From the NCBI GenBank assembly GCA_964355275.1, contig CAYHCB010000007.1, positions 2,759-51,097 of the forward strand: a stretch of 48,339 bases of DNA, given 5' to 3'. The stretch's first letter is position 1. Each line of letters begins with the position of its first letter. This stretch comes from an uncultured Gammaproteobacteria bacterium. GTDB taxonomy: Bacteria > Patescibacteriota > Patescibacteriia > Patescibacteriales > UBA12465. Positions 459 through 29,897 of the stretch are shown piece by piece. Below the pieces are notes generated by a model. The model was not told the DNA's origin and made no database searches. It worked only from the letters and a program-made list of their open reading frames with translations. The position numbers were made by a program, and so were the translations under genes.

Positions 459-1973
459 TTAACGAGCATACTCTGTTACCCGTAATTCACGGATAACATT
501 TACTTTAATCTCTCCAGGGTATTTTAACTCAGTTTCTATTTTTTTGGCAATATCTCTGGCTAAGTCATGAGCTCTTATGTCATCGGTCTCCTCAGCTTTA
601 ACGAAGACTCTTACTTCTCGTCCGGCTTGGATGGCGTAAGTTTTTTCAACACCTTCAAAAGATAAGGCAATTTTTTCTAACTCTTCAAGACGTTGAATAT
701 AATTTTCATAATTATCATTACGGGCGCCTGGACGAGCCGATGAAATAGCATCAGCTACTTTTACGATTACTGAAATAAGAGAAGCTGGTTTATCGTCGTG
801 ATGAGTAGCGATTGGATCAATAATTTCTTGTGGTAAATTAAATTTTTTGGCAATATCGCGACCGATTTCGGTATGATTACCCTGGACTTCGTGATCAACC
901 GCTTTACCAATATCATGAAGTAGGCCACCTTTTTTAGCCAAAGTGACGTCAGCCCCCAATTCTTCGGCTAAAATAGAAGATAAGTGAGCCACCTCGATAG
1001 AATGACGTAAGGCATTTTGACCATAGCTGGTACGATATTTTAATCTTCCTAAAATCTGAACTAATTTAGGATCAAATCCGGCCACACCAACCTCATACAT
1101 GGCTTCTTCACCGGCTTTTTTTATATCAATAGCAATTTCTTTTTTTGCGGCTTCAACGGCGTCTTCAATTTTAGTAGGGTGAATCCGCCCATCTTTTATT
1201 AAATAATCTAAAGTTTTTTTAGCAATGTGTCGACGAATCAAAGAAAAACCAGAAATAGTAATCGCATTTGGGGTGTCATCTACGATAATTTCGGTGCCAG
1301 TCATCTGTTCAATTGATTTAATATTTCTTCCTTCCCGTCCAATAATTCGTCCCTTCATTTCATCGCTTGGTAAGTCAACTGTAGTAGTCGTTAGTTCTAC
1401 TGTATAGTCAGATACCATTCTTTGCATCGCTAGAGCCATAATATCTTTCGCTTTGTCGGCTAATCTATCACCGCCCTCGTTTTCTAATTTTTGTAAACGA
1501 ACCGATAAATCATCAGCGCACTGTTCTTCAATTTTTTTCAGCAAGGTCTCTTTAGCTTCTTCTTTTGATAATTTAGCTAATTCTTCTAGTTTAGTCGATT
1601 GTTCTTCTTTGATAGCTTTAATTTTTTCTTTAATTTCTTGAACTTCAGTTACTTTGTCATAAAGTTTCTGTTGTTTGTCTTGTAAATCTAATAATTTTTG
1701 AGAAAAAGAATTTTCGCGTTGCTCGAGTCGTCCTTGTAAATCATTTATTTCTTTACGTCTTTGGGTTTCCTCTTTTTTTGATTCCTCAATTACAGCTAAA
1801 GCCTTATCCTGAGCACGAAGTAAAAGCTCTTTTTCTTTTAATTTAGCATCACCAACAATTTTTTCTGCTTTTTGTTCGGCGCTGTTAAGCTTTTGTCCAG
1901 CCGATTTTCTGTAAAGGTAAAATCCAATAAAAAAACCACCTACCAAAAAAACAACGTACAAAATATATTCCAT
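459..1973 (-). CDS. rny: Ribonuclease Y
   Basis: N-terminal TM helix, coiled coil, KH (MKGRIIGREGRNI), HD domain (LLHDIGKA), C-terminal YAIQAGREVRV. Start moved from the track's 2015 to ATG 1973 (MEYILY). Confidence 0.97.
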   Translation of the reverse strand: MEYILYVVFLVGGFFIGFYLYRKSAGQKLNSAEQKAEKIVGDAKLKEKELLLRAQDKALAVIEESKKEETQRRKEINDLQGRLEQRENSFSQKLLDLQDKQQKLYDKVTEVQEIKEKIKAIKEEQSTKLEELAKLSKEEAKETLLKKIEEQCADDLSVRLQKLENEGGDRLADKAKDIMALAMQRMVSDYTVELTTTTVDLPSDEMKGRIIGREGRNIKSIEQMTGTEIIVDDTPNAITISGFSLIRRHIAKKTLDYLIKDGRIHPTKIEDAVEAAKKEIAIDIKKAGEEAMYEVGVAGFDPKLVQILGRLKYRTSYGQNALRHSIEVAHLSSILAEELGADVTLAKKGGLLHDIGKAVDHEVQGNHTEIGRDIAKKFNLPQEIIDPIATHHDDKPASLISVIVKVADAISSARPGARNDNYENYIQRLEELEKIALSFEGVEKTYAIQAGREVRVFVKAEETDDIRAHDLARDIAKKIETELKYPGEIKVNVIRELRVTEYAR

Positions 1974-1984
1974 AATATTTGGGC

Positions 1985-2216
1985 TGTTTTTAGGAAATAG
2001 TGGCGAATCTGGCAAAAACTTTAATTAAAAGATAAAAAACACTTTTAGAGAATAAGTGCTGTTTATTTGCTCATTTTTTTAATATTTTTGTCAATTAAGA
2101 ACAAAAATCTGAGACTATTTTTTAATTTGAAACGGGAATTTAAGGCGTTCATTACGGTTTTAGTTTAAGCTTTAATGATAATCTGCCACAAACAGAATCT
2201 AATTTTCCTAAAAACA
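1985..2216 (-). ncRNA. Candidate structured RNA (6S-like, or rny 5' leader)
   Basis: Perfect 13-bp terminal inverted repeat (TGTTTTTAGGAAA 1985-1997 / TTTCCTAAAAACA 2204-2216), inner GTGGC/GCCAC pairing, internal hairpins, upstream promoter. Confidence 0.5.
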
Positions 2217-2245
2217 ATTAATTATTAATTAGATATTACGCTAAT

Positions 2246-2274
2246 ACTCTAGCATTTATTTATTTGACTGTAAA
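2246..2274 (-). promoter_or_regulatory. Promoter for the structured RNA/rny
   Basis: TTTACA (2274-2269), 17 bp, TG-C-TAGAGT (-10 at 2251-2246). Confidence 0.55.
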
Positions 2275-2384
2275 GATGGTTTTTGAATATTTTATGATGA
2301 TTATAAGTTGACTAAAACAAAAATATAAAGTAATATTTAAGCATCTTAAGCAATAAAAATAAGCATTTTTTGTAAAATACGCCT

Positions 2385-4364
2385 ATGAATATTACCGAGT
2401 TAGCCCGAGTTCTAAGAGTCAATCCGCAGGAGTTGCGTGATCTTTTGCCAAAAATAGGTTTTAATATTGGGCAAAAAGCTATTAAAGTTGATAATAACAC
2501 CGCCAAAAAGATTATAAAAAATTGGCCGGCTTTTAGACGCCAACTGGAAATTCAAAGAGCGGCCGCTTTTGCTAAGAAAAGGGAAGAAGATGCTATTCCT
2601 CATGAGAAAAAAGAAATAAAAATTCCAACTGTCATTACCGTTCGTGATTTTGCCGAAATTGCTCAAGTTCCTGTTAATAAGGTTTTAGTGGAACTTATGA
2701 AGAATGGTGTTTTTGCTTCTATTAATGAAAAAATTGATTTTGACACGGCTATAATTATTGGCGTTGAATTACATCTTGATATCAAGCCTTTAGAAGAAGG
2801 ACAGGAAACCGAGGAAAAAGAGGACCGAAAATTAGCAGAAATTTTAGAAAAAGAAGAAGCAGAGGATATGTATGATCGTCCTCCAGTAATTGTTATTATG
2901 GGTCACGTTGATCATGGTAAAACTAAATTACTTGACTCGATTCGGCGTACTGATGTTATGGCTGGTGAAGCTGGTGGAATTACCCAACATATTGGGGCTT
3001 ATCAGATTTTTAGAAAAAATAAAGTAATTACTTTTATCGATACTCCAGGGCATGAAGCCTTTACTGCCATGAGAAGTCGTGGCGCAAAAGTAGCTGATAT
3101 TGCTATTTTAGTGGTAGCGGCTGATGATGGCGTTAAACCACAAACGGTGGAAGCTTGTCGTATTATTGAAGCGGCTAAAATTCCTTTTTTAGTGGCCATT
3201 AATAAAGTTGATAAGCCAGATGCTAATATTGATAAAACTAAACAAGAACTATCTTCTATTTTAGGGATTACTCCTGAAGATTGGGGTGGTAAAACAATTT
3301 GTGTCCCAATATCTGCTAAGGAAGGCACTGGTATCGAAGAGTTATTAGATATGGTTTTACTAGTAGCTGATACGGAAAACGCTAATATGAAAGCTAATCC
3401 TAAAGCTGATGCTGCCGGAACAGTGGTGGAATCAAACATGGATAAAGGCGCTGGCCCAGTAGCGACTATTTTAGTGCAAAATGGCACTTTACGAGTTGGT
3501 GATCAACTTTGTTTTAACGAAGTTATCTACGGAAAAGTTAAATCTTTAAAAAATTATCGTGGTGAAAATATTATAGAAGCCCTACCATCTATGCCTGCTA
3601 AAATTTTAGGACTTAAAATTTCTCCAGCTGTTGGCGATATTTTAGAAGTTGGCGATGGACGAAAAGTAAAAAATAAAAAGATTCGAACAGCTTCTGAGGA
3701 AACGGTAAAATCTGCCATGACTATGGTTAGTAATGAAGGCGAAGGTAATATTCCTCAAATAAATTTAATTATTAAAGCTGATTTTTTAGGTTCCGCTGAA
3801 GCAATTGAGGAATCACTGATGAAGTTAAATACTGAAAAAGTAAAAGTAAAAATTTTAGCTAAAGGTTTAGGCAATATTACCGAAGGAGATATTAAGCGGG
3901 CCGAAGATTCAGGGGCCAAAATTGTTGGTTTTAATGTCCGTATTACTCCGGTTATTGAAAATTTGGTTCGTGAACGTGGAGTTGATGTTAAAACTTATTC
4001 AATCATTTATGATTTAATTAAATATATAAAAAGTGAAATGCAACAACTTATCAAAGCGGAAACTATTCGCGTTAATGAGGGGCGTATTAAAATTTTAGCA
4101 ATTTTTAGAACGGAGATTGATAAACAAATAGTCGGTGGTCGTGTTTTAGATGGTTATGCTAAACTAGATAGTTTGGTTGAAGTTAAACGTGATTCAGAAA
4201 TTGTGATAACCGGAAAATTAACTAGATTACAAAGTGGTAAACAAGATGTAAAAATTGTTGAAACTAACGAAGAGTGCGGTTTATTATTCGATGGTAAACC
4301 ATTAATTCAGGTTGGTGATATTTTACAAATTTATCACGAAGACAAGGTTATCGATAAATTATAA
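2385..4364 (+). CDS. infB: Translation initiation factor IF-2
   Basis: GHVDHGKT, GGITQHIGAY, DTPGHEAF, NKVD GTPase motifs; short N-terminal region. Confidence 0.98.
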   Translation: MNITELARVLRVNPQELRDLLPKIGFNIGQKAIKVDNNTAKKIIKNWPAFRRQLEIQRAAAFAKKREEDAIPHEKKEIKIPTVITVRDFAEIAQVPVNKVLVELMKNGVFASINEKIDFDTAIIIGVELHLDIKPLEEGQETEEKEDRKLAEILEKEEAEDMYDRPPVIVIMGHVDHGKTKLLDSIRRTDVMAGEAGGITQHIGAYQIFRKNKVITFIDTPGHEAFTAMRSRGAKVADIAILVVAADDGVKPQTVEACRIIEAAKIPFLVAINKVDKPDANIDKTKQELSSILGITPEDWGGKTICVPISAKEGTGIEELLDMVLLVADTENANMKANPKADAAGTVVESNMDKGAGPVATILVQNGTLRVGDQLCFNEVIYGKVKSLKNYRGENIIEALPSMPAKILGLKISPAVGDILEVGDGRKVKNKKIRTASEETVKSAMTMVSNEGEGNIPQINLIIKADFLGSAEAIEESLMKLNTEKVKVKILAKGLGNITEGDIKRAEDSGAKIVGFNVRITPVIENLVRERGVDVKTYSIIYDLIKYIKSEMQQLIKAETIRVNEGRIKILAIFRTEIDKQIVGGRVLDGYAKLDSLVEVKRDSEIVITGKLTRLQSGKQDVKIVETNEECGLLFDGKPLIQVGDILQIYHEDKVIDKL

Positions 4365-9984: not shown

Positions 9985-10485
9985 TTATTTCCCAATTAAG
10001 AATTTTTTATCACTCGATAAATCGATGAAATCATCAGCTTCTTCAATTAGACGAGAAGAGCAAGTTTTGCGGAAGGCCATTATTTCTACTAAACAACCTT
10101 TATTGTTTTGTAGATAGGAAACGAGTGGCAAATAATCACCATCACCTGATACTAAAATAATTACATCCAGTTTATCGGCTAATTTTATAGCATCAATTGA
10201 TATTCCGACATCCCAGTCACCTTTTTTAGAGCCACCAGCAAAAGTTTGCAAACCCTTCATCTTAACTTCAAACCCTTGCTGACTTAACGCTTCAAAAAAG
10301 GACGTCTCTTCGTCGTTATCACTCTTTATAACATAAGCAGTGGCTCGGATAAGTTTCCGGGAGGCCACCGCTTGAGTAAGTATTTGTTGAAAATTGGTTC
10401 GACGATTATATAAATTCTTGGCAGAATGATACATATTAGATACATCCACCAAAACCCCCACCCTTTGTTCTTTGTGCTTTATCAT
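9985..10485 (-). CDS. NYN (LabA/DUF88, PIN-fold) domain protein
   Basis: VDVSNM, KGDWDVGISID, LVSGDGDY, SSRLIEEADDFIDL motifs. Confidence 0.9.
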   Translation of the reverse strand: MIKHKEQRVGVLVDVSNMYHSAKNLYNRRTNFQQILTQAVASRKLIRATAYVIKSDNDEETSFFEALSQQGFEVKMKGLQTFAGGSKKGDWDVGISIDAIKLADKLDVIILVSGDGDYLPLVSYLQNNKGCLVEIMAFRKTCSSRLIEEADDFIDLSSDKKFLIGK

Positions 10486-10517: not shown

Positions 10518-10904
10518 CTATTCTTCAATAACCTCGTCAACCAAATCTTTTGGTTCCTCGATGGTATCTTCGCTGTCAACAGGAGCGTATTTCTTTTCTT
10601 TTAGTTTTGCTTCCTCTTCTTCGGCGATTAATTTATTGGCAATTTTTAATTTTAATTTTTCTGCTAATTCTCTGAATTGAACTTCGCTTTCTTTTTGTAG
10701 ATATTTAAGAAGTTTTCGTCTTTCTCCAACTTTCTTAAGTAAACCACGGCGAGAAGAAAAATCATGTTTATGTTGTTTTAAATGCTCCGTTAACTCTTTA
10801 ATTTCTTCAGTTAAAATAGCAATTTGAACCTGGGTAGAACCAGTGTCAGTGTCATGAACACGAAATTTTTTGATAATTTTCTCTTTGATTTTTTTATCTA
10901 ACAT
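10518..10904 (-). CDS. rpsO: 30S ribosomal protein S15 with an acidic C-terminal extension
   Basis: [38 protein letters not shown]. Confidence 0.97.
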
Positions 10905-11311: not shown

Positions 11312-11352
11312 TGCCATAGCCTTTCTTTTATTGGCTTAAGTAACCAAAAATG

Positions 11353-11423
11353 TCGGGGTGCTGGGAATTGAACCCAGTCAACATGCTCCCAAAGCATGCG
11401 TACTACCGGTATACGACACCCCG
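11353..11423 (-). tRNA. tRNA-Pro(TGG)
   Basis: CGGGGTG acceptor stem, CATGC-TTTGGGA-GCATG anticodon arm, GGTTCAATTCC T-arm; no encoded CCA. Confidence 0.93.
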
Positions 11424-11437
11424 TTTAAATTTTTTTG

Positions 11438-11509
11438 TGCCCCGGGTCAGAATTGAACTGACGACACAAGGATTTTCAGTCCTTTGCTCTACCACTGAGC
11501 TACCGAGGC
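11438..11509 (-). tRNA. tRNA-Phe(GAA)
   Basis: AAGGA-CTGAAAA-TCCTT anticodon arm; full cloverleaf. Confidence 0.95.
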
Positions 11510-11531
11510 CACAAACTTTTAAAAAGTTTTG

Positions 11532-11604
11532 TTGCGGGGGTCGGATTCGAACCGACGACCTTCGGGTTATGGGCCCGACGAGCTGCCAACTGCTCTACCC
11601 CGCG
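11532..11604 (-). tRNA. Initiator tRNA-fMet(CAT)
   Basis: CGCGGGG start with C1:A72 mismatch, TCGGG-CCCATAA-CCCGA with three consecutive G-C pairs. Confidence 0.95.
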
Positions 11605-11631
11605 ATATCTAACTGTAAAAATGCAGTTATG

Positions 11632-11705
11632 TGGGCAATGGAGGACTCGAACCTCCGACCTCAACATTATCAGTGTTGCGCTCTAACCAACTGAGCTAAT
11701 TGCCC
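11632..11705 (-). tRNA. tRNA-Ile(GAT)
   Basis: CAACA-CTGATAA-TGTTG anticodon arm; GGGCAAT/ATTGCCC acceptor stem. Confidence 0.95.
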
Positions 11706-11770
11706 GTAATTTTAGCTAATTTATTTTTGAGTAAGATAAATAAAAATAGGGTTGGTCAAACTCTTTATAG

Positions 11771-11799
11771 AATATAACAAACTAAAAAGAAAAAGGCAA
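11771..11799 (-). promoter_or_regulatory. Promoter for the tRNA Ile-fMet-Phe-Pro cluster
   Basis: TTGCCT, 17 bp, TG-T-TATATT. Confidence 0.6.
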
Positions 11800-11849
11800 T
11801 AGTAAAAATAGCCAAAAAACCTATATTAAATAAGGTTGTAGTGAATATT

Positions 11850-12833
11850 TTATAGTTTAGCAAGAAATAAAGCTAGTTCTGCTTTAGTCTCGCCTTGGCC
11901 GGTCTTATTTTTAAAATCTAAAGAGATTAAATGGTTTAAGTGGTTTTTTAAGTCTGCTAAAATAAAACCCTTGGTCTGTGGTAGGTTTTTTTTAACCACA
12001 TAAGCATGAATTTTAAGTTCATCGGCTATTTGTGAAATACTAAAATTGGCTAAAACAGAACTTTTTATCTGTAATAAAATTTTAAATTGGCGAATCAGCA
12101 TCGCTAAAATATAATCTTCACTAACTCCGGCTAAATATTGCTCTTCTAGTAAGGTGATGGCGGTTTTCTTATTGCGAGCAGAAATGGCGTCAGTTAAGGC
12201 AAAAATATTTTCATCATAAATATTAGCTACTTGAGATTTGACGGTCTCATTAGTTATTTCCTTTCCATCTGAAATACTCATGGCTAATTTATGAAGTTCT
12301 GAAGATATTTGCCACAAGTCGGAGTTAGTTCGAGTGACAAGAGTTAAAATGGCCGCTGATTCAATTTTGCGGTTTAGTTTTGAAACTAATTCTTTAATAA
12401 AATCATTTAACTGTAAGCTAGATAGAGTTTTAAATTCTTGAACATACTGTTGCTTTAGTAAAAAGCTAAATAATTTTTGAGCCTCTTTTTTTAGTTTTCG
12501 ATTTTTATCATTTAAATTGCCATCGCGGAAAACAATTATATTATCGTCACTATTTTTAGTAGCACCTTCTCGTTTATTGAGAAATAAATTTAATTCACTA
12601 AATAGTTTATCATTTTTATTTTCTAAAATATCTTCAATCACAACCATTCTTTTTTTTACAAACAGGGATCCAGTATTTATTTTTTCACTAATTTCTTTGA
12701 GGTTAGTTATTTTTCCGTCTAGTACAATTAAGCTTTGTGAAGCGGCGTCTATTTCACTAACAAACTTATCTTTAAGTTCATTCAATTTTTGACGACTGCG
12801 ATAAGTATCGGCGCCGTAAATAAATATAATCAT
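11850..12833 (-). CDS. holA: DNA polymerase III subunit delta
   Basis: MIIFIYGADTY, TGSLF..KRMVVI, ELHKL, NIFALTDAI, LIRQFKILLQIK; 327 aa. Confidence 0.88.
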   Translation of the reverse strand: MIIFIYGADTYRSRQKLNELKDKFVSEIDAASQSLIVLDGKITNLKEISEKINTGSLFVKKRMVVIEDILENKNDKLFSELNLFLNKREGATKNSDDNIIVFRDGNLNDKNRKLKKEAQKLFSFLLKQQYVQEFKTLSSLQLNDFIKELVSKLNRKIESAAILTLVTRTNSDLWQISSELHKLAMSISDGKEITNETVKSQVANIYDENIFALTDAISARNKKTAITLLEEQYLAGVSEDYILAMLIRQFKILLQIKSSVLANFSISQIADELKIHAYVVKKNLPQTKGFILADLKNHLNHLISLDFKNKTGQGETKAELALFLAKL

Positions 12834-12835
12834 AA

Positions 12836-15505
12836 TTAACGGGCTAGTTTTTTAACAGCTTCTTTAAATAGATCACCCTTTTCTTCAAAATTCTTAAAAA
12901 TACTATAGCTAGGTGAGGCGGTGGAAAGCAAACAGACTTTGCCTGAGGAGGTATTTTTATAAGCAAACAAAACAGCTTCTGCCATTTCTCTAGTTTCTAA
13001 AAGTTGTGGTAACTTTTTTAAACCATAAATTTTAACTAAAGATTCTTTGATTCGTTTACCGCTATCAGGAAAGAGAACAATATTTTTAATTTTTATTTTT
13101 TTTAAAAATATAATTAATTTATCAAATTTATAGCCACGATCTTCGCCACCTAAAATTATTGTTTCTAAAGAATCTTGGACGCAACTAATAGCCGCCATTG
13201 TTGACTCTGGTGTGGTTGAAATGGCGTCATCGAAAAAAGTTATGCCCTGATATTTTCCAATATTTTCTAGTCTATGGGGAAGAGGCTTAAAAGTTTTTAG
13301 AGATTTTATAATAGTAGTCGTGGGAATTTTAAATAAGCTAACCGTTGTCATGGCGGCGGTTATATTTTTTAAATTATGATCGCCTAGTAAATTAATATCC
13401 TTATTATTTAATAATTGTTTTTTATTATAATAGATTGCTCCATTTTTTATTAAATATTTTTTATTATAATTTAAAGTTGAGGCCTTAGTTTTTTTGGCTA
13501 GATTTTTTATAAAAGAGAATTCATCATTATAAATAAAATAATCGCCTACTTTTTGTTTTAAGCTTATATTTGCTTTGGCATTTGCGTAATTTTTAAAACC
13601 ATTATGATAAGGTAAATGGTCGGGGAAGATGTTTATTAGGACCGCTATTTTTGGGCCTTTTTCTAGGGTAGATAATTGATAACTAGATAATTCATAAACA
13701 AAAATATCATCTTTTTTAGCTTTTTCTAAAAGTGGTAGGGGGTTGGTGCCAATATTTCCCACTAGATGAACTTTTTTGCCAGCGGTTTTTAAAATATGAT
13801 AAATTAAACTAGCAGTAGTGCTTTTTCCTTTTGTGCCACTAACGCCAATAATAGTCCCCGGGCAAGCATCAAAAAATATATTAGTTAAAGTTGTAACTGA
13901 AACGCCTGCGGATTTAGCCAGTTTAATTTCTTGAATTTGATCAGAAATACCGGGACTTTTTATTATTAAATTAAAGTTATCTAAATTTTTAAAACAATTT
14001 GGGCCTGATATTACCGTGGTGTTTATTTTTTCCTCTTTAGTTAAATTAATAGTTTTTTGATCAGCTAGCCACAAGTGAAGATTTGGATATTTTTCTCTTA
14101 AATGTTTAAAAATATAAGAACCCTCTTTACCGTAACCTAAAATTAACATTTTTTTAAAATTAGGAGGTAAATAATTATCTGAACTATCTTTTAAATTTTC
14201 TTCTATTAAATTTTCTGGATTTTTTATTTTGTAGGAAATCTTGTTTATAAAATAATTACCAATAAAGCTTTGTTGAAATTCTTTTTGTTTACCCGCTAGT
14301 ATTAATGCTGCGCGCACCTCTTCTTTAGTGCCGACACAATCAAAGGGTTTAAATTTTTTCTCACCCCAAAGTTCTTGAAATAAAGGTAACAGCTTTTTAT
14401 CATTAAATAAGTTTTTTTGGAAAATTTTTGTAACTTTATTTATCGGTAAATAAGCTGACAATAAACAAAAGGCAAAAGCACATTTAGGGCACTCGCCACA
14501 CCACCTTTTTTCATTTTTTTTGGTTATTAAAAAATTTCTGTTACAGCTAGAAAATTTAGGTAAATATTTAGGATAAGCGGTAAATTCTTTGACAATTTTT
14601 AATTCTGAATAAGGGCGGAGAAGGCTGAAAAAATTTAAGTCACCACTAATGTAGTTATTTATGTAGTCACTAATTAATTTTTCAAACTCGCCGCTCTTAC
14701 TATATTGATGATTAATATCTAGTCCTAAATAATTTACATTACCAAAGTTAGAGCTTTGTTCGTTGGCAAATACTAAAGTATTATAATTATTTAAAACAGC
14801 TCCTAGTAAGCTGACCCAGATATAAATATTAGAAATGGGGACGTGCCCATTATAAGCTCCTTCTGAATTTAATATAAAAAGAGTTGGGTCTATTTTTCTG
14901 TCGTAATAAAAATATGGCGCTCCTATTATTTCTGCGGTTTCTTTTTGAATTTTACTACTTCGTAAGCTAAACAAGCAAAATTCTTGATTTAGTTCTTTTA
15001 GTTTCTCGGCTGCCAAGCAGGAATCTTTGCCACCACCTAGCGGAGAGAGACATCTATTGCGCAGTTTAACTTTTGTTGGCGAAACCTTTATATTCTGATA
15101 TGGAAAATTTATTAAATTATGCCAGTTTATTTTGTTACGATAGAAAAATTCCCCTAAACCTTTGAGATAGAGATTGTTCCAAAAATTAGCCTGTTCTTTA
15201 TTTAAAAAACCACTTCTTATAATAATTTTTTTTGGGAGATAAGCCTTATAATATCCTACCCCTAGAGCCAGATGAAGATTAAATAAAATTTTGTCTAATA
15301 ATTCTTTGTTTATATTTTTCCAGTTTATTTTATTTTTTGATAAAATAATAATTTCCTTAAATTTTATTTTGTCATCAAAGGAATAATAAAAACTGATAGT
15401 TTTTTTCTTTTTATCTAATTTATAGGAATCAAAAACAAAACTAGAAAATTTATTTAAATTATCTACTTTTTTATTGTCTTTAATTTTAGCCGTATAAATA
15501 GACAT
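12836..15505 (-). CDS. Fusion of MurL-like UDP-MurNAc-L-Ala-L-Glu epimerase (aa ~1-450) and MurD/MurD2-like ligase (aa ~453-889)
   Basis: N-half: GGGKDS, YNGHVPIS, NEQSSN, NHQYSKS, FSSCN, WCGECPKC, KPFDCVG. C-half: LGYGKEG, KSPGI, GTKGKSTT, GNIG, ELSSYQL, PDHL, LPHRLE, DDAISTTPEST, SPSYSIFKNFEEKG. One uninterrupted frame. Confidence 0.85.
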   Translation of the reverse strand: MSIYTAKIKDNKKVDNLNKFSSFVFDSYKLDKKKKTISFYYSFDDKIKFKEIIILSKNKINWKNINKELLDKILFNLHLALGVGYYKAYLPKKIIIRSGFLNKEQANFWNNLYLKGLGEFFYRNKINWHNLINFPYQNIKVSPTKVKLRNRCLSPLGGGKDSCLAAEKLKELNQEFCLFSLRSSKIQKETAEIIGAPYFYYDRKIDPTLFILNSEGAYNGHVPISNIYIWVSLLGAVLNNYNTLVFANEQSSNFGNVNYLGLDINHQYSKSGEFEKLISDYINNYISGDLNFFSLLRPYSELKIVKEFTAYPKYLPKFSSCNRNFLITKKNEKRWCGECPKCAFAFCLLSAYLPINKVTKIFQKNLFNDKKLLPLFQELWGEKKFKPFDCVGTKEEVRAALILAGKQKEFQQSFIGNYFINKISYKIKNPENLIEENLKDSSDNYLPPNFKKMLILGYGKEGSYIFKHLREKYPNLHLWLADQKTINLTKEEKINTTVISGPNCFKNLDNFNLIIKSPGISDQIQEIKLAKSAGVSVTTLTNIFFDACPGTIIGVSGTKGKSTTASLIYHILKTAGKKVHLVGNIGTNPLPLLEKAKKDDIFVYELSSYQLSTLEKGPKIAVLINIFPDHLPYHNGFKNYANAKANISLKQKVGDYFIYNDEFSFIKNLAKKTKASTLNYNKKYLIKNGAIYYNKKQLLNNKDINLLGDHNLKNITAAMTTVSLFKIPTTTIIKSLKTFKPLPHRLENIGKYQGITFFDDAISTTPESTMAAISCVQDSLETIILGGEDRGYKFDKLIIFLKKIKIKNIVLFPDSGKRIKESLVKIYGLKKLPQLLETREMAEAVLFAYKNTSSGKVCLLSTASPSYSIFKNFEEKGDLFKEAVKKLAR

Positions 15506-15516
15506 ATTATCTTAGG

Positions 15517-18312
15517 TTATTTTAATTCACCCCAATTATCACCTATAGCTGATTCAACAATAATTGGTACTTTTAAAATAATAGCATTTTCCATTAACTT
15601 TTTAATTTCGGGTAACCAATTTTCAATCTTATCTTCTTTTATTTCAAAAATCAATTCATCATGAATTTGTAGAAGTAATCTAATTTCTTCCGGGTGATTT
15701 TTTATTTTATCAGCGATGTTTATCATAGCAATTTTAATAAGATCGGCGGCCGTTCCCTGAACTGGAGTGTTAGTGGCCATTCTTTCAGCACTACGACGAA
15801 TGACTACCGTGTTTGAGTTAATTTCTGGTAAATAACGTTTTCTGCCAAACATAGTTATTGCATAGCCTTTTTCTTTAGCTTGGGCAATTGAATTATCAAT
15901 CATTTTACGTATTTCTGGATAAGCAGCAAAATATTTAGCAATAAATTCTTGCGCCCTACTATAAGGTATGCCAGCATTTTGGGCTAAACCATGAGGGCCC
16001 TGGCCATACAATATTCCAAAATTAATTGCTTTAGCTTCATAACGCATTTTTTTACTTACCTCTGATAGTTCAACTTCATTAATTTCAGCAGCTGTCGCCG
16101 TGTGAATATCTTCTTTATCTTTAAAAGCTTTAATCATTTTTTTATCGCCAGATAAATGGGCTGCTAGTCTTAACTCAATTTGTGAATAATCTAAACTGAC
16201 TAATTTCCAATTTTTTTCGGCGATGAAAGCAGAGCGTATTTTTTTACCTTCTTCGGTGCGAGTTGGTATATTTTGTAAATTTGGTTCATTTGATGACAAG
16301 CGTCCGGTAGCGGCTACTGTTTGATTAAAACTGGTATGAATTCGGCCAGTTTTTTTATTAATTAAATTAGGTAGTGCCATCACGTAAGTGCTTTGTAGTT
16401 TATTTAATTCACGATAACTTTGAATTAAAGCAATTATTTCATGTTCACCTAATAATTTTTCAAGTTCATCGTCAGCAGTAGAAATTCCCGTTTTTGTTTT
16501 TTTAATATTTTTAGTACCGATTGCCAACTTATTAAATAGTATTGCTTGCAGTTGTTTTGGTGAATTAATATTAAACTCCTCTCCTGCTTGAGTGTAAATA
16601 TTTTTAGCTAAGTCCTTTAAGCGAGCGCCTAAGTCTTTTTCTATTTTTTTAAGATTTTTAGGATTTAAAATTATGCCATTTTCTTCCATATTAGCTAGTA
16701 CCGTAACTAGCGGTAGTTCAATAGTTGTCATCAGTTTATCTAAATTTTCTTCTTTTAATTTTTTACTTAGTATTTCACTAAGTAGCCAAGTACAATTAGC
16801 ATCCTCTCCGGCGTATTGTGCTATTTTTTCAGCGGCTACCTGGGAGAAAGAGATTTGAGTTTTACCTTTACCAATAATATCGGTAGTAGAGATTTTTTCC
16901 CAACCTAATTCTCTAAAAGAGACGGCATCTAAATTATGTTGACGGTTATCAGGGTTAAGTAAATAAGAACCGAGCATGGTATCAAAAAATAATCCCTTAA
17001 CAATCACACCTTGATTTTTTAAGACCCGCCAGTCAAATTTAGCATTATGGGCACATTTTTTTATTTCCTCATTTTCTAAAATACCTTTTAGTTCGCTCAG
17101 CCAAGGATGGGAAATGTCATCAGACTTTTGATAACTAAATAAATCAGCGACTTTTTTTGATTTACCCTGAGAAAGGTCTAAATAATAGGCAACATCTTTT
17201 TCCCAAGAAAAAGACATTCCTAAAAGTTCGGCATTAATTGGGTTAAGACCAGTAGTTTCTGTATCAAAAGCAAAAGCTTTAATAGTTTTTAATTTTTTTA
17301 AAAAAGAACTAAATTTATCCGGGGTATCAATTAACTGATATTGTTTTTCCTTCTCATTTCTGGAAAATTTGTCCTCATAACTTGCTTTAGTGGGCTCACT
17401 TTCTGCTTCGCTACCATTTTTTATATTTTGTAGTTTTCCAATTAATGATTTAAATTCTAGTTGAATAAATAGATCGGTTACTTTTTGCACATCAAAAGAG
17501 TTAAGTCGTAAATCCTCCCAATCTAAATCAAAAGTAACATCACGCTTAATAGTTGCCAGACTTTGGCTCATATAAGCATCATCTTTATAAGTCTTAAGTA
17601 ATTCACTAATTCGCGGCCTGATATGCTCATTATTTTTTGAAACAGCTAAATAGACCCCATCTAATGTTTTAAACTCTTGGAGTAATTCAGTCGCTGTTTT
17701 TTCGCCAATACCTTTAACGCCCGGAATATTGTCGCTAGGATCACCTCTTAGCGCCTTATAATCAATTATTTGATTAGGATTTAAGCCATATCGTTCTCTA
17801 ACTTTTTCCTCGGTGTAAGTAGTGCTGTCATTTAAGCCACGACTCATAGAGTAAACTTTAGTGCGCGGGCTAACTAATTGCAGGCTATCCATATCGCCGG
17901 TAACGATATAACTTTCAAAGTCTGTTTCCGCCTCCGCTCTTTTGGTAATTGTGCCAATTAAATCATCAGCCTCAAAGCCAGATATTTCAAAAATGGGAAT
18001 ATCTAAGGCCCTAGCCACCTCTTTTACTATTGGTACCTGTTCATAGAGCTCGTCCGGGGCGGCTGTTCTCGTTCCTTTATATTCAGCATATTCTTCATGG
18101 CGAAAAGTTGGCCCTTTTTTGTCTAAGGTTAAAGCTACATATTCTGGTCTAAATTCTAAAAAAGCTTTAAGTAAAAAAGAAGTAAAACCATAAACGGCAT
18201 TAACAATTAAGCCATCTTTAGTTGTAAGAGTTGTTGGTAAGGCGTGAAAGCTGCGGTGTATTAGCGCATGGCCATCTATTACCATTAACTTTGATTTATT
18301 TTTTATAGTCAT
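15517..18312 (-). CDS. polA: DNA polymerase I
   Basis: 5'-3' exonuclease (EADDLIGT, GDPSDNIPGV), 3'-5' exonuclease (FDTETTG), polymerase (DYSQIELR, KAINFGILYG, QIHDEL). Confidence 0.98.
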   Translation of the reverse strand: MTIKNKSKLMVIDGHALIHRSFHALPTTLTTKDGLIVNAVYGFTSFLLKAFLEFRPEYVALTLDKKGPTFRHEEYAEYKGTRTAAPDELYEQVPIVKEVARALDIPIFEISGFEADDLIGTITKRAEAETDFESYIVTGDMDSLQLVSPRTKVYSMSRGLNDSTTYTEEKVRERYGLNPNQIIDYKALRGDPSDNIPGVKGIGEKTATELLQEFKTLDGVYLAVSKNNEHIRPRISELLKTYKDDAYMSQSLATIKRDVTFDLDWEDLRLNSFDVQKVTDLFIQLEFKSLIGKLQNIKNGSEAESEPTKASYEDKFSRNEKEKQYQLIDTPDKFSSFLKKLKTIKAFAFDTETTGLNPINAELLGMSFSWEKDVAYYLDLSQGKSKKVADLFSYQKSDDISHPWLSELKGILENEEIKKCAHNAKFDWRVLKNQGVIVKGLFFDTMLGSYLLNPDNRQHNLDAVSFRELGWEKISTTDIIGKGKTQISFSQVAAEKIAQYAGEDANCTWLLSEILSKKLKEENLDKLMTTIELPLVTVLANMEENGIILNPKNLKKIEKDLGARLKDLAKNIYTQAGEEFNINSPKQLQAILFNKLAIGTKNIKKTKTGISTADDELEKLLGEHEIIALIQSYRELNKLQSTYVMALPNLINKKTGRIHTSFNQTVAATGRLSSNEPNLQNIPTRTEEGKKIRSAFIAEKNWKLVSLDYSQIELRLAAHLSGDKKMIKAFKDKEDIHTATAAEINEVELSEVSKKMRYEAKAINFGILYGQGPHGLAQNAGIPYSRAQEFIAKYFAAYPEIRKMIDNSIAQAKEKGYAITMFGRKRYLPEINSNTVVIRRSAERMATNTPVQGTAADLIKIAMINIADKIKNHPEEIRLLLQIHDELIFEIKEDKIENWLPEIKKLMENAIILKVPIIVESAIGDNWGELK

Positions 18313-18353
18313 AGGTACATTTTAACACATTTGAGTCTTTTTGCTATAAAAGA

Positions 18354-18377
18354 AAAAAACGCCGGATGTCGACGTTT
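18354..18377 (-). terminator. Terminator after the 26-codon ORF
   Basis: Minus strand AAACGTCG-ACATC-CGGCGTTT followed by a T run. Confidence 0.55.
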
Positions 18378-18397
18378 ATTCGAAAAGTGTTATTAAT

Positions 18398-18478
18398 TTA
18401 TCGAAATCTAAAGCTATCATCGGATATTTCTAGCCCACCTATTGGTTCTTCGTTAGAGATAGCACTCAGTAAATTCAT
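18398..18478 (-). pseudogene. 26-aa ORF MNLLSAISNEEPIGGLEISDDSFRFR, resembling the N-terminus of PilM/actin-like ATPases (remnant or small peptide)
   Basis: Hand-translated. GLEISD resembles the GLDISD-type phosphate-1 strand at the start of PilM-family proteins. TG-T-TATAAT promoter upstream (-10 at 18510-18505). Confidence 0.4.
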
Positions 18479-18591
18479 AAAAGAAAAAGGTAATTTATAT
18501 TTTTATTATAACATAAAATTTTAAGTGTTGCCAAAATTATTTAAGTCTCATTTATCTCTTTATTCTGGAGTTTTAAATTAAATTTATAATA

Positions 18592-18623
18592 AAAAATCAT
18601 CCAAATAAATTCGGATGATTTTT
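18592..18623 (-). terminator. Terminator after tRNA-Ala
   Basis: AAAAATCATCC...GGATGATTTTT inverted repeat. Confidence 0.75.
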
Positions 18624-18627
18624 ACTG

Positions 18628-18702
18628 TGGACCCCAAGGGATTCGAACCCTTGACCCTCTGCTTGCAAAGCAGATGCTCTAACCGGGCTGAGCTAGGGGC
18701 CC
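18628..18702 (-). tRNA. tRNA-Ala(TGC)
   Basis: TCTGC-TTTGCAA-GCAGA anticodon arm; G3:U70 identity pair. Confidence 0.95.
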
Positions 18703-28460: not shown

Positions 28461-29897
28461 ATGATTTCATTTATAAAAAAGTTAATTCCGAAAGAGCTAT
28501 TTAAAAAAATTAGACCAATTTATCACTACGTAGTAGCAGCGCTGGCTGCTTTTTGGTATCGCTATCCTAGTAAAAAGTTAATAGTAATTGGTGTAACTGG
28601 AACAACCGGCAAAACTTCCTCTGTTTATTTTATTGCTAAAGTTTTAGAATCGGCTGGTTATAACGTTGGCTATACTTCGACAGCAATGTTTGATGACGGT
28701 AAGCGCGAGTGGTTAAATGACAAGAAAATGACGATGCCTGGTCGTTTTTTTGTGCAGAAAATTTTACGTCGCATGGTTAAAAATCGTTGCCAATATGCCA
28801 TCGTGGAAACTACTTCTGAAGGGATTGTTCAATTTCGTCATAAATTTATAAATTATGATATTTTAGTTTTTACCGGTTTATATCCTGAACATTTAGAAAG
28901 TCACGGTGGTTTTGAGAAATATAAACAAGCCAAAGGTCTTTTATTTGCTCACTTAAAAAGTTGTTCCGCTAAATATGTAAATGATCAAAAAGTAGTTTGT
29001 CATCCACAGACAGCGCTTAAAAAGTTAGATTATACTAGAGTTAAAAAAATAGTAGTCATAAATGGTGATGACGAAAATTCTCCATATTTTTTAAGTTTTT
29101 GGAGTGAAGAGCAATTAATCTATACAACTAATACTGGGTTTAATAGTAACGTTTTCATGGAAAACGGTGGAGAAGATAAAATCTTAAAAGATAGTCATGT
29201 TTATAATTTTAGCGAAGTAATGGCTTCTGCCTCGGGAACTTCATTTAAATTTCAGGATCAGATAATAAATTTAAAACTTCTTGGCGATTTCAATGCTATT
29301 AATGCTATGAACGCCGCCTTAGTTGGACTGAGCCAAGGCCTGTCTTTAGATCGAGTAAAAACAGGTTTAGAAAGTGTAACTTGTTTATCTGGAAAAATGG
29401 AAAGAATAGACTTGGGCCAAGAGTTTCAAATAATCGTTGATTATTCTTTTGAACCAAGAGCGATGAAAAAAATGTATGAGACCGTTCAACTAATTCCTCA
29501 TAATAAAATTATTCATTTACTAGGTTCTTGTGGCGGCGGAAGAGACCACGACAGGCGACCTATTTTAGGAGAACTTGCCGGAGAAAAGGCTGATTATGTA
29601 ATTATTACTAATGAGGATCCCTATGACGAGGATCCGCAACTCATTATTGACCAAGTGGCCGCTGGCGCTAGCGTAGCCGGCAAGAAGTTAAATAATAATT
29701 TATTTGAAATATCTGATAGGCGGGAAGCAATTGCTAAGGCGCTAAGTTTAGCTGAAGTTGGCGATTTAGTTTTAATTACAGGAAAAGGAGCGGAACAATA
29801 CATCTGTTTAGCTAATGGTAAAAAAGTCCCTTGGGATGACAGGCGTGTTGTTAGAGAAGAACTAGCTAAAATAAAAGAAACAGAATCTGTATTATAG
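28461..29897 (+). CDS. murE: UDP-MurNAc-tripeptide synthetase (MurE family)
   Basis: IGVTGTTGKT, ETTSEG, EHLESHG, GGGRD, TGKGAE, WDDR. Confidence 0.88.
   Translation: MISFIKKLIPKELFKKIRPIYHYVVAALAAFWYRYPSKKLIVIGVTGTTGKTSSVYFIAKVLESAGYNVGYTSTAMFDDGKREWLNDKKMTMPGRFFVQKILRRMVKNRCQYAIVETTSEGIVQFRHKFINYDILVFTGLYPEHLESHGGFEKYKQAKGLLFAHLKSCSAKYVNDQKVVCHPQTALKKLDYTRVKKIVVINGDDENSPYFLSFWSEEQLIYTTNTGFNSNVFMENGGEDKILKDSHVYNFSEVMASASGTSFKFQDQIINLKLLGDFNAINAMNAALVGLSQGLSLDRVKTGLESVTCLSGKMERIDLGQEFQIIVDYSFEPRAMKKMYETVQLIPHNKIIHLLGSCGGGRDHDRRPILGELAGEKADYVIITNEDPYDEDPQLIIDQVAAGASVAGKKLNNNLFEISDRREAIAKALSLAEVGDLVLITGKGAEQYICLANGKKVPWDDRRVVREELAKIKETESVL

Follow-up and report, generated by a model that had tools for sequence, protein, structure and literature searches.

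A fused MurL–MurD protein predicted to supply D-glutamate to peptidoglycan without a racemase in a Patescibacteria-type bacterium

The stretch of DNA analysed here (the window, 48,339 nucleotides (nt) of contig CAYHCB010000007.1) encodes one polypeptide of 889 amino acids (aa), murL::murD, that very probably carries two consecutive enzymes of the racemase-independent D-glutamate (D-Glu) route in peptidoglycan, a MurD2-type ligase and a MurL-type epimerase. In the mechanism we propose, the C-terminal MurD2-type ligase would attach L-glutamate (L-Glu) onto UDP-MurNAc-L-Ala, converting adenosine triphosphate (ATP) to the diphosphate (ADP). The N-terminal MurL-type epimerase, on a QueC-like PP-loop ATP pyrophosphatase core, would then turn the L-Glu residue to the D-form. 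The identities of the domains, the modelled fold of the MurL half, the lack of a detected route to free D-Glu, the replacement of the canonical genes at the same locus and the place of the ligase half, with its Arg790 and Pro865, in a MurL-linked clade support this assignment. The chemistry and the L-Glu specificity are predicted by analogy with the characterised Xanthomonas, Micromonospora and Salinispora enzymes. The protein unites in a single chain the two enzymes of a known pathway, found here in bacteria without an earlier report in the literature searched, and it is widespread, not unique.

The two halves and their junction

The open reading frame (ORF) comprises 889 codons and a stop codon and has no internal stop. 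A first-pass annotation had read it as a MurL-MurD fusion with a number of characteristic motifs, each of which was located. Residue numbers and coordinates below refer to the 889-aa protein and the window.

12836..15505, minus strand: whole murL::murD fused ORF (ORF call; two full-length family matches)
14147..15451, minus strand: MurL half, residues 19-453 (NF041275 match, AlphaFold model, QueC-like PP-loop fold)
15020..15037, minus strand: PP-loop-type motif GGGKDS, residues 157-162 (alignment invariance)
14480..14551, minus strand: cysteine cluster, SSCN (C321) and WCGECPKC (C336, C339, C342) (alignment invariance)
14330..14350, minus strand: KPFDCVG motif with the invariant C390, a candidate acid/base residue (alignments)
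14135..14167, minus strand: fusion junction, residues 447-457, PPNF-KK-MLILG (junction alignment, full-length model)
12848..14152, minus strand: MurD-type ligase half, residues 452-886 (TIGR01087; MurD structures are the best PDB relatives)
13619..13621, minus strand: Asp629 codon, aligned with E. coli Asp182 and MurD2 Glu197, a canonical-type residue
13136..13138, minus strand: Arg790 codon, aligned with E. coli MurD Lys348 and MurD2 Arg358
12911..12913, minus strand: Pro865 codon, aligned with E. coli Ala414 and MurD2 Pro433

Profile searches agreed with the first-pass assignment of both halves. The N-terminal half matches the NCBIfam MurL family NF041275 almost from end to end (E 6.4e-108, 361 bits, residues 19-453, model positions 6-442 of 447). 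Its motifs begin at residues 157 (GGGKDS), 219 (NGHVP), 265 (NHQYSKS), 319 (SSCN), 335 (WCGECPKC) and 386 (KPFDCVG). An alignment of 34 MurL sequences, whose rows are unnamed representatives with the window protein as the first row, contains 38 invariant columns, and the window protein has all of them. They include GGGKDS, G220, H221, P223, E249, N265, H266, Q267, S269 and K270, as well as S320-C321-N322, C336, C339, K341, C342 and C390. Among 42 fused proteins, five of the six GGGKDS positions are invariant and D161 is nearly so; C321, C336, C339, C342 and C390 are invariant in both alignments. The PP-loop consensus is of the SGGxDS type, and GGGKDS fits it with Gly replacing the first Ser. 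The cysteines have a C-x14-C-x2-C-x2-C spacing, which we take to resemble the zinc site of QueC.

The AlphaFold model of the MurL half, built from the 34-sequence alignment, has a predicted local distance difference test score (pLDDT) of 94.4 and a predicted template modelling score (pTM) of 0.92. In a Foldseek search its best match in the PDB is QueC (3bl5_A, probability 1.00, E 1.5e-4, template modelling (TM) score 0.62 on the target), followed by QatC, TtuA, Cap9, MnmA, TrmU and argininosuccinate synthase, all PP-loop ATP pyrophosphatases. The half models as a QueC-like PP-loop ATPase fold, in line with its first-pass description as PP-loop-like. A sequence search of the PDB with this half gave no match at E up to 1, and a Pfam scan of the whole protein gave the three Mur-ligase domains only, with no family for the N-terminal half. 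The protein database attaches the precomputed labels PF26298.1 and PF26299.1 to the N-terminal half of the fused protein and its relatives. QueC activates a carboxylate with ATP and releases adenosine monophosphate (AMP), as MurL is described to do. MurL needs one ATP, forms AMP, works in the L to D direction only and “lacks known conserved domains” (PMC8788868). This ATP-to-AMP chemistry fits a carboxylate-adenylating PP-loop fold, and the adenylation of the Glu alpha-carboxylate proposed for MurL (PMC8788868) likewise fits the modelled fold. The inversion itself might proceed via an invariant thiol such as that of C390, or via an oxazolone that arises from the activated N-acyl amino acid.

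The C-terminal half matches the murD family TIGR01087 over residues 452-886 (315 bits, cut-off 212, model positions 1-441). The N-terminal, middle and C-terminal Mur-ligase domains of Pfam are all found in it, K561, N584, E605, H630 and K644 are conserved, and it matches MurD structures in the PDB by sequence. A genome search gives the same place, and the fused gene is the only MurD in its genome. The glutamate sites of E. coli MurD and MurD2 differ at D182/E197, K348/R358, A414/P433 and L416/F435; MurD2 is turned to D-Glu by the double change E197D/R358K, and E197D alone altered its stereospecificity (PMC8788868). We compared these positions in 102 aligned ligases (20 fused, 52 adjacent to murL, 28 from MurI-holding relatives, that of the related genome G033 and that of E. 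coli); ORFs running off contigs and three short partial ones were left out. In the Dyella, Rhodanobacter and Frateuria orthologues the four sites are E, R, P and F, exactly as the review gives for MurD2, which validates the mapping. At E. coli position 348, Arg occurs in all 20 fused and 51 of the 52 murL-adjacent ligases (71 of the 72 MurL-linked ones) and in 0 of 29 others; Lys is present in 28 of 28 MurI-partnered ligases, G033 and E. coli. At position 414, all 20 fused ligases and 46 of the 52 adjacent ones have Pro, and 27 of the 28 MurI-partnered ones have Ala. The fused ligase half is MurD2-like in Arg790, Pro865 and Tyr867 (MurD2 has the aromatic Phe at 435) and has Asp629 at the 182/197 position. 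Arg790, Pro865 and Ile762 match the MurL-linked ligases, whereas the MurI-partnered ones carry Lys, Ala and Phe. Within this alignment, the Arg/Pro signature separates MurL-linked from MurI-linked ligases.

The ligase tree (100 rows, IQ-TREE quick mode, LG+G4, support by the Shimodaira-Hasegawa-like approximate likelihood ratio test) agrees with this separation. The ligase half groups with the fused ligases of locus L047, a Falkowbacteria record, and of the related genome G018 (support 98). The sister of this trio is formed by the unfused, MurL-adjacent L048 and L049 (99), and both groups sit inside a 34-row Patescibacteria MurL-linked set (87). The MurL-linked ligases also include the Dyella, Rhodanobacter and Frateuria MurD2 orthologues, so in this tree, of a kind that the first-pass annotation had proposed as a check, the ligase half groups with MurD2 relatives and not with the canonical MurD of its congeners. 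Five congener ligases fall in a separate 27-row canonical clade (98), and a branch with a support of 97 separates the canonical set. Forcing the ligase half together with the congeners was 273 log-likelihood units worse (approximately unbiased test, p 2.2e-53, on a chosen subset of 32 of the 102 rows, with the group named after the tree was seen). In the MurL tree (83 rows), the nearest relatives are the same (99), with the same unfused sisters; therefore, the two halves were inherited together. Both trees need at least three changes between the fused and unfused states, which indicates that the fusion arose at least three times, besides the reverse-order fusions described below.

The junctions in the three-member fused clade are PPNF-KK-MLILGYG, PENF-RK-TIIIGG and PYNF-QK-ILVLGFG. 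Two residues lie between the P..F motif at the MurL C-terminus and the first strand of the MurD N-domain, without a linker. Unfused sister loci have an additional MurL tail and MurD leader, and their murL and murD overlap by 4 nt or lie 4 nt apart. A small error could join genes spaced in this way, and the single ORF would then be an assembly or sequencing artefact of two adjacent genes. This is extremely unlikely, because the fused clade has a distinct shortened junction common to three genomes, each of the 120 best database clusters consists of single proteins (813-952 aa), the fusion is present in 20 of 80 independent species loci, and near-identical DNA occurs in sequencing runs of several studies. 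The single-ORF homologues, 813-952 aa long and from many independent assemblies, thus support a genuine fusion. The first-pass annotation had let the ligase start at an in-frame Met near 14149. Met453 is indeed encoded there (ATG, 14149-14147), but it was rejected as a conserved internal start: the upstream sequence has no GGAGG-like motif, and the two nearest fused relatives have Thr or Ile in its place. As this Met is not conserved, it does not count as a retained start codon.

The full-length model, based on 42 fused sequences, has a pLDDT of 91.3 and a pTM of 0.83. The junction is ordered in it, with mean pLDDT values of 86 and 94 for the 10-residue blocks on either side and without a disordered linker; this order is the model's own confidence and no demonstration of channelling. 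When the two halves were modelled as separate chains, the complex score was 0.45 (best of three controls 0.00), graded as weak support. Of 80 solved complexes 58 attained the mark for this score, as did 2 of 110 mismatched pairs, and its bracket up to 0.60 holds seven of the 80 solved complexes and both passing mismatches; these calibration counts are only rough, the alignments being self-built. The separate-chain runs agree in at least 50% of contacts, and the partner pLDDT is at least 84.

The murD-murI locus and the spread of the fusion

The genome that contains the window (G000; 872 kb in 23 contigs) is 93.9% complete. Profile searches of this 93.9%-complete assembly gave no match to glutamate racemase MurI (TIGR00067), to the Asp/Glu racemase family (PF01177) or to the class-IV aminotransferases (PF01063, Dat). 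MurA, MurE (in the window), MurF, MraY and a penicillin-binding protein are present. The absence of MurI and Dat from this genome had been expected by the first-pass annotation, and its view that both steps are fused in one protein is supported by the domains, the tree, the lack of another detected D-Glu source and a junction kept in many fused homologues. The neighbours of the fused gene and the next ligase of the pathway are as follows.

15517..18312, minus strand: polA, upstream neighbour after an 11-nt gap (DNA polymerase I match, 1086 bits)
11850..12833, minus strand: holA, downstream neighbour after a 2-nt gap (DNA polymerase III delta match, 192 bits)
28461..29897, plus strand: murE, the next pathway ligase, which needs the D-Glu product (TIGR01085, 312 bits, above cut-off; ORF 1186..2622 of locus L004)

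Both gaps are as first described, and the family matches confirm the neighbours. In the three congeners examined (G001, G005 and G007), the order is polA – murD (420-428 aa) – murI (301-346 aa) – holA. The window has polA – murL::murD – holA on one contiguous stretch, and the slot of the congeners' murI is without murI. Identity to the congeners is 59-76% for polA and 46-60% for holA, and 35-36% for the ligase half against their MurD. The gene order and the low ligase identity argue that murD-murI was replaced in place by a foreign cassette. Such a swap at one locus within a genus is a clean non-orthologous replacement of an essential step.

In related genomes, MurL and MurI almost never occur together. 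Of 41 relatives, three have MurL only (the genome of the window, G018 with a fused gene and G027 with separate genes), 36 have MurI only (35 above cut-off), none has both and two (G033 and G036) have neither. All ten congeners have MurI, and MurL was not found in them. Among 80 further MurL-holding species genomes, MurI is above cut-off in one (G052), and no more than weak matches (19-45 bits) turn up in another ten. These counts are descriptive, without a statistical test, as the genomes are related to each other. The two genomes with neither enzyme, both of the same order as that of the window, differ in quality: G033 is 99% complete in five contigs and has a MurD match with one TAG; in G036, which is 88% complete, no MurD match was found either. 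The fused gene of G052 lies on a 2.9-kb contig, and contamination and true redundancy are alike possible.

The genome G027 belongs to the same order and is 92% complete; MurI was not found in it. At its locus L046 (G027:C98, 4394-5716 and 5713-7125), polA is followed by murL and murD as separate genes with a 4-nt overlap. The G027 MurL groups with the L048/L049 cassette (95), and the G027 MurD, of the canonical type native to its lineage, with Lys, Ala and Phe at the signature sites, sits in the canonical clade. G027 may represent a naturally occurring intermediate, with MurL acting alongside a canonical-type ligase.

A pattern scan of species genomes found at least 597 stretches that encode a MurL relative. 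Gene order was determined in the best 80 of them, most of which belong to many Patescibacteria lineages. In 20, murL::murD is fused; in 54, murL is followed by murD on the same strand within the flank, directly adjacent or overlapping in 52 cases and separated by 0.5-1.3 kb in two. One locus has murD followed by murL, and five have no murD in the stored flank; three of these five break off no more than ~70 nt from the murL end, and a fourth is cut inside murL. Thus murD is fused or nearby in 75 of these 80 loci and directly adjacent or fused in 73, and about a quarter of them are fused. MurL relatives in at least 597 species-level genomes stand against the relatively few genera to which the pathway, also proposed as a narrow-spectrum drug target, has been described as limited (PMC8788868).

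The fusion is also abundant in the protein database, where at least 120 fused clusters at 90% identity (813-952 aa) are 42-72% identical to the window protein with 96-100% coverage. These 120 best clusters come from Patescibacteria lineages and carry MurD names, except for one “hypothetical protein”. The first-pass annotation had left open whether such fusions are catalogued: they are plentiful in sequence databases, but named only as MurD, and so hidden under that name. Because the epimerase half does not show in the public names, these organisms would come out of annotation pipelines as lacking a D-Glu source. Among the best 150 of 2617 cluster representatives that match the N-terminal half, 21 are MurL-then-MurD fusions (two of them truncated), 127 are stand-alone and two, P0246 (835 aa) and P0256 (878 aa), are MurD-then-MurL fusions whose order was confirmed. 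The reverse-order fusions are independent evidence of selection for physical joining.

From the linker-free junction and the independent fusions in both orders, we infer that the two halves work as a physical unit. On the same basis, the L-Glu intermediate may be handed over directly between them. The fused protein allows a direct test of such channelling, and as a natural single-chain two-enzyme system it is convenient for structural work on MurL, for which the sequence search gave no solved relative. The organism would be able to use scavenged L-Glu for its wall. We put forward only tentatively a broader scenario, in which the MurD2/MurL route is a widespread mobile Patescibacteria cassette that swaps with murD-murI at one conserved slot, even within a genus, and selection has joined its two enzymes in one order on at least three occasions and in the opposite order too.

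Other features of the surroundings were recorded. Promoter-like sites in 11600-18700 numbered 35, against 28.4 ± 5.7 expected, and the promoter and terminator scan was of no use for operon structure. Four tRNA genes (Pro-TGG, Phe-GAA, Met-CAT and Ile-GAT) are clustered at 11352-11705 on the minus strand, just downstream of holA; a 114-aa plus-strand ORF at 11350..11694 was rejected as a spurious reading across them. Ribosomal protein S15 is encoded at 10518-10904 (minus strand), and its model match is limited to residues 4-87 of 128. The C-terminal extension of ~40 residues, acidic and Lys/Glu-rich, is without a match, and congeners also encode S15 forms of 128-144 aa. A 166-aa NYN-domain protein at 9985-10485 (minus strand) has a weak TIGR00288 match and is 83-93% identical to the congener copies, the highest or near-highest identity among the compared genes of the stretch in each of three congeners. 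Elsewhere in the genome, a FolC-type Mur-ligase-family protein is encoded at G000:C1:144978-146192 on the minus strand (283 bits, above cut-off). It also occurs in congeners G001 and G005 and was not found in G018 or G027.

Alternative readings of the two halves

Five findings weigh against the assignment of the fused protein to the MurD2/MurL route. First, the 361 bits of the MurL half lie far under the curated 700-bit equivalog cut-off of NF041275; this family is named and built for Xanthomonadales, and none of the 41 relative genomes reaches its cut-off either. Second, Asp629 replaces Glu197 of MurD2, and eight other MurL-linked ligases also have Asp there. Third, G027 couples MurL with a canonical-type MurD (Lys, Ala), so the Arg/Pro signature is not strictly required for co-occurrence with MurL. 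Fourth, G052 (the genome of locus L058) has both a fused murL::murD and MurI (175 bits). Fifth, MurC (TIGR01082) was not found in the genome of the window, yet it is present in ten of ten congeners. We considered a loss of MurC as part of the MurL system and rejected it, since other MurL-holders keep MurC: it is present in G018 and G041-G043, and in G027 as a fragment at a contig end. The absence of MurC is probably an assembly gap. Since the assembly then has gaps, the absence of murI and dat elsewhere in the genome is not proven.

The low score of the MurL half, and QueC as its closest solved fold, would also suit a different function. QueC is an amide- and nitrile-forming enzyme, and the N-terminal half might use PP-loop adenylation for another stem-peptide reaction, such as amidation or other modification of the Glu alpha-carboxylate, and not be an epimerase. 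We regard this as very unlikely. The half gives a full-model MurL match (E 6e-108), has the invariant residues common to the 34-sequence MurL alignment, and is 34-36% identical to the MurL of the Xanthomonadales loci L095-L097. With amidation, moreover, the organism would be left without D-Glu, as MurI and Dat were not found.

Asp629 remains the main doubt about strict L-Glu use that the residues of the ligase half raise. Asp occupies the 182/197 position in 9 of the 72 MurL-linked and 4 of the 28 MurI-partnered ligases; the position is D/E-variable in both groups and therefore does not discriminate in this lineage. The canonical-type Asp629 and the pairing in G027 would fit a ligase half that still prefers D-Glu from a host or the environment, with the MurL half serving in salvage or proofreading of L-Glu mis-incorporation and not as the main D-Glu source. 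Bacteria of this group are considered to rely on their hosts for many metabolites, which also speaks for a host supply. We consider a D-Glu-preferring ligase unlikely, as Arg790, Pro865 and Ile762 are those of MurL-linked and not of MurI-partnered ligases, the ligase half lies within the MurL-linked clade, and replacement, more than an add-on, would account for the near-perfect mutual exclusion of MurI and MurL. The MurD2/MurL assignment is the one we follow below.

Comparison with known systems

The characterised pair, MurL XOO_1319 and MurD2 XOO_1320, comes from Xanthomonas oryzae, and orthologues in Micromonospora and Salinispora have been assayed too, according to two reviews (PMC8788868, PMC5808125). 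The taxa listed there are Gamma- and Alphaproteobacteria and rare actinobacteria, with low-similarity orthologues in a fungus, cyanobacteria and an amoeba (PMC8788868, PMC5808125). The words “fused” and “fusion” are absent from both reviews (PMC8788868, PMC5808125). Our literature search found no paper on MurL in Patescibacteria, on a MurL-MurD fusion or on the MurL fold, within a scope that excluded supplements and the original 2017/2019 papers, which might mention such fusions.

The fused gene resembles the Xanthomonas system in its two activities (here predicted), in the murL-then-murD order and in a genome in which no MurI or Dat was found. The ligase half also has Arg and Pro at the R358 and P433 positions of MurD2. 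In contrast to the Xanthomonas enzymes, the fused protein is a single polypeptide without a linker and has Asp instead of MurD2 Glu197. Its identity to the Xanthomonadales orthologues is about 34-36% in the MurL half and 27-30% in the ligase half, and its host is a small-genome Patescibacteria-type bacterium, a kind of organism that the reviews do not list.

The canonical MurD and MurI, which the congeners encode at the same locus, make free D-Glu and then ligate it. The canonical ligases have Lys, Ala and Phe where the fused ligase has Arg790, Pro865 and Ile762. MurI activity has reportedly been demonstrated by experiment in Candidatus Saccharimonas aalborgensis, in a 2024 paper that PMC11974145 cites.

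QueC, QatC, Cap9 and TtuA are the best structural matches of the MurL half and share with it the PP-loop motif and a C-x2-C-x2-C cysteine cluster. Identity in the structural alignments is only 11-16%. QueC covers only the central domain (TM score 0.30 by query length), and MurL has additional N- and C-terminal domains, another substrate and another outcome.

Fusions of other Mur enzymes are known as the families MurE/MurF (NF008896), MurC/Ddl (NF011171) and MurF/Alr (NF008897), all of which appear as partial matches of the fused protein. Like murL::murD, they place consecutive or linked pathway steps in one protein. Their partners are different, and none of them couples a ligase with an epimerase that acts on its product. 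Compared with these systems, murL::murD introduces no new principle; what it adds is an in-place swap within a genus, fusion in both orders, a modelled QueC-like fold and the Arg/Pro signature.

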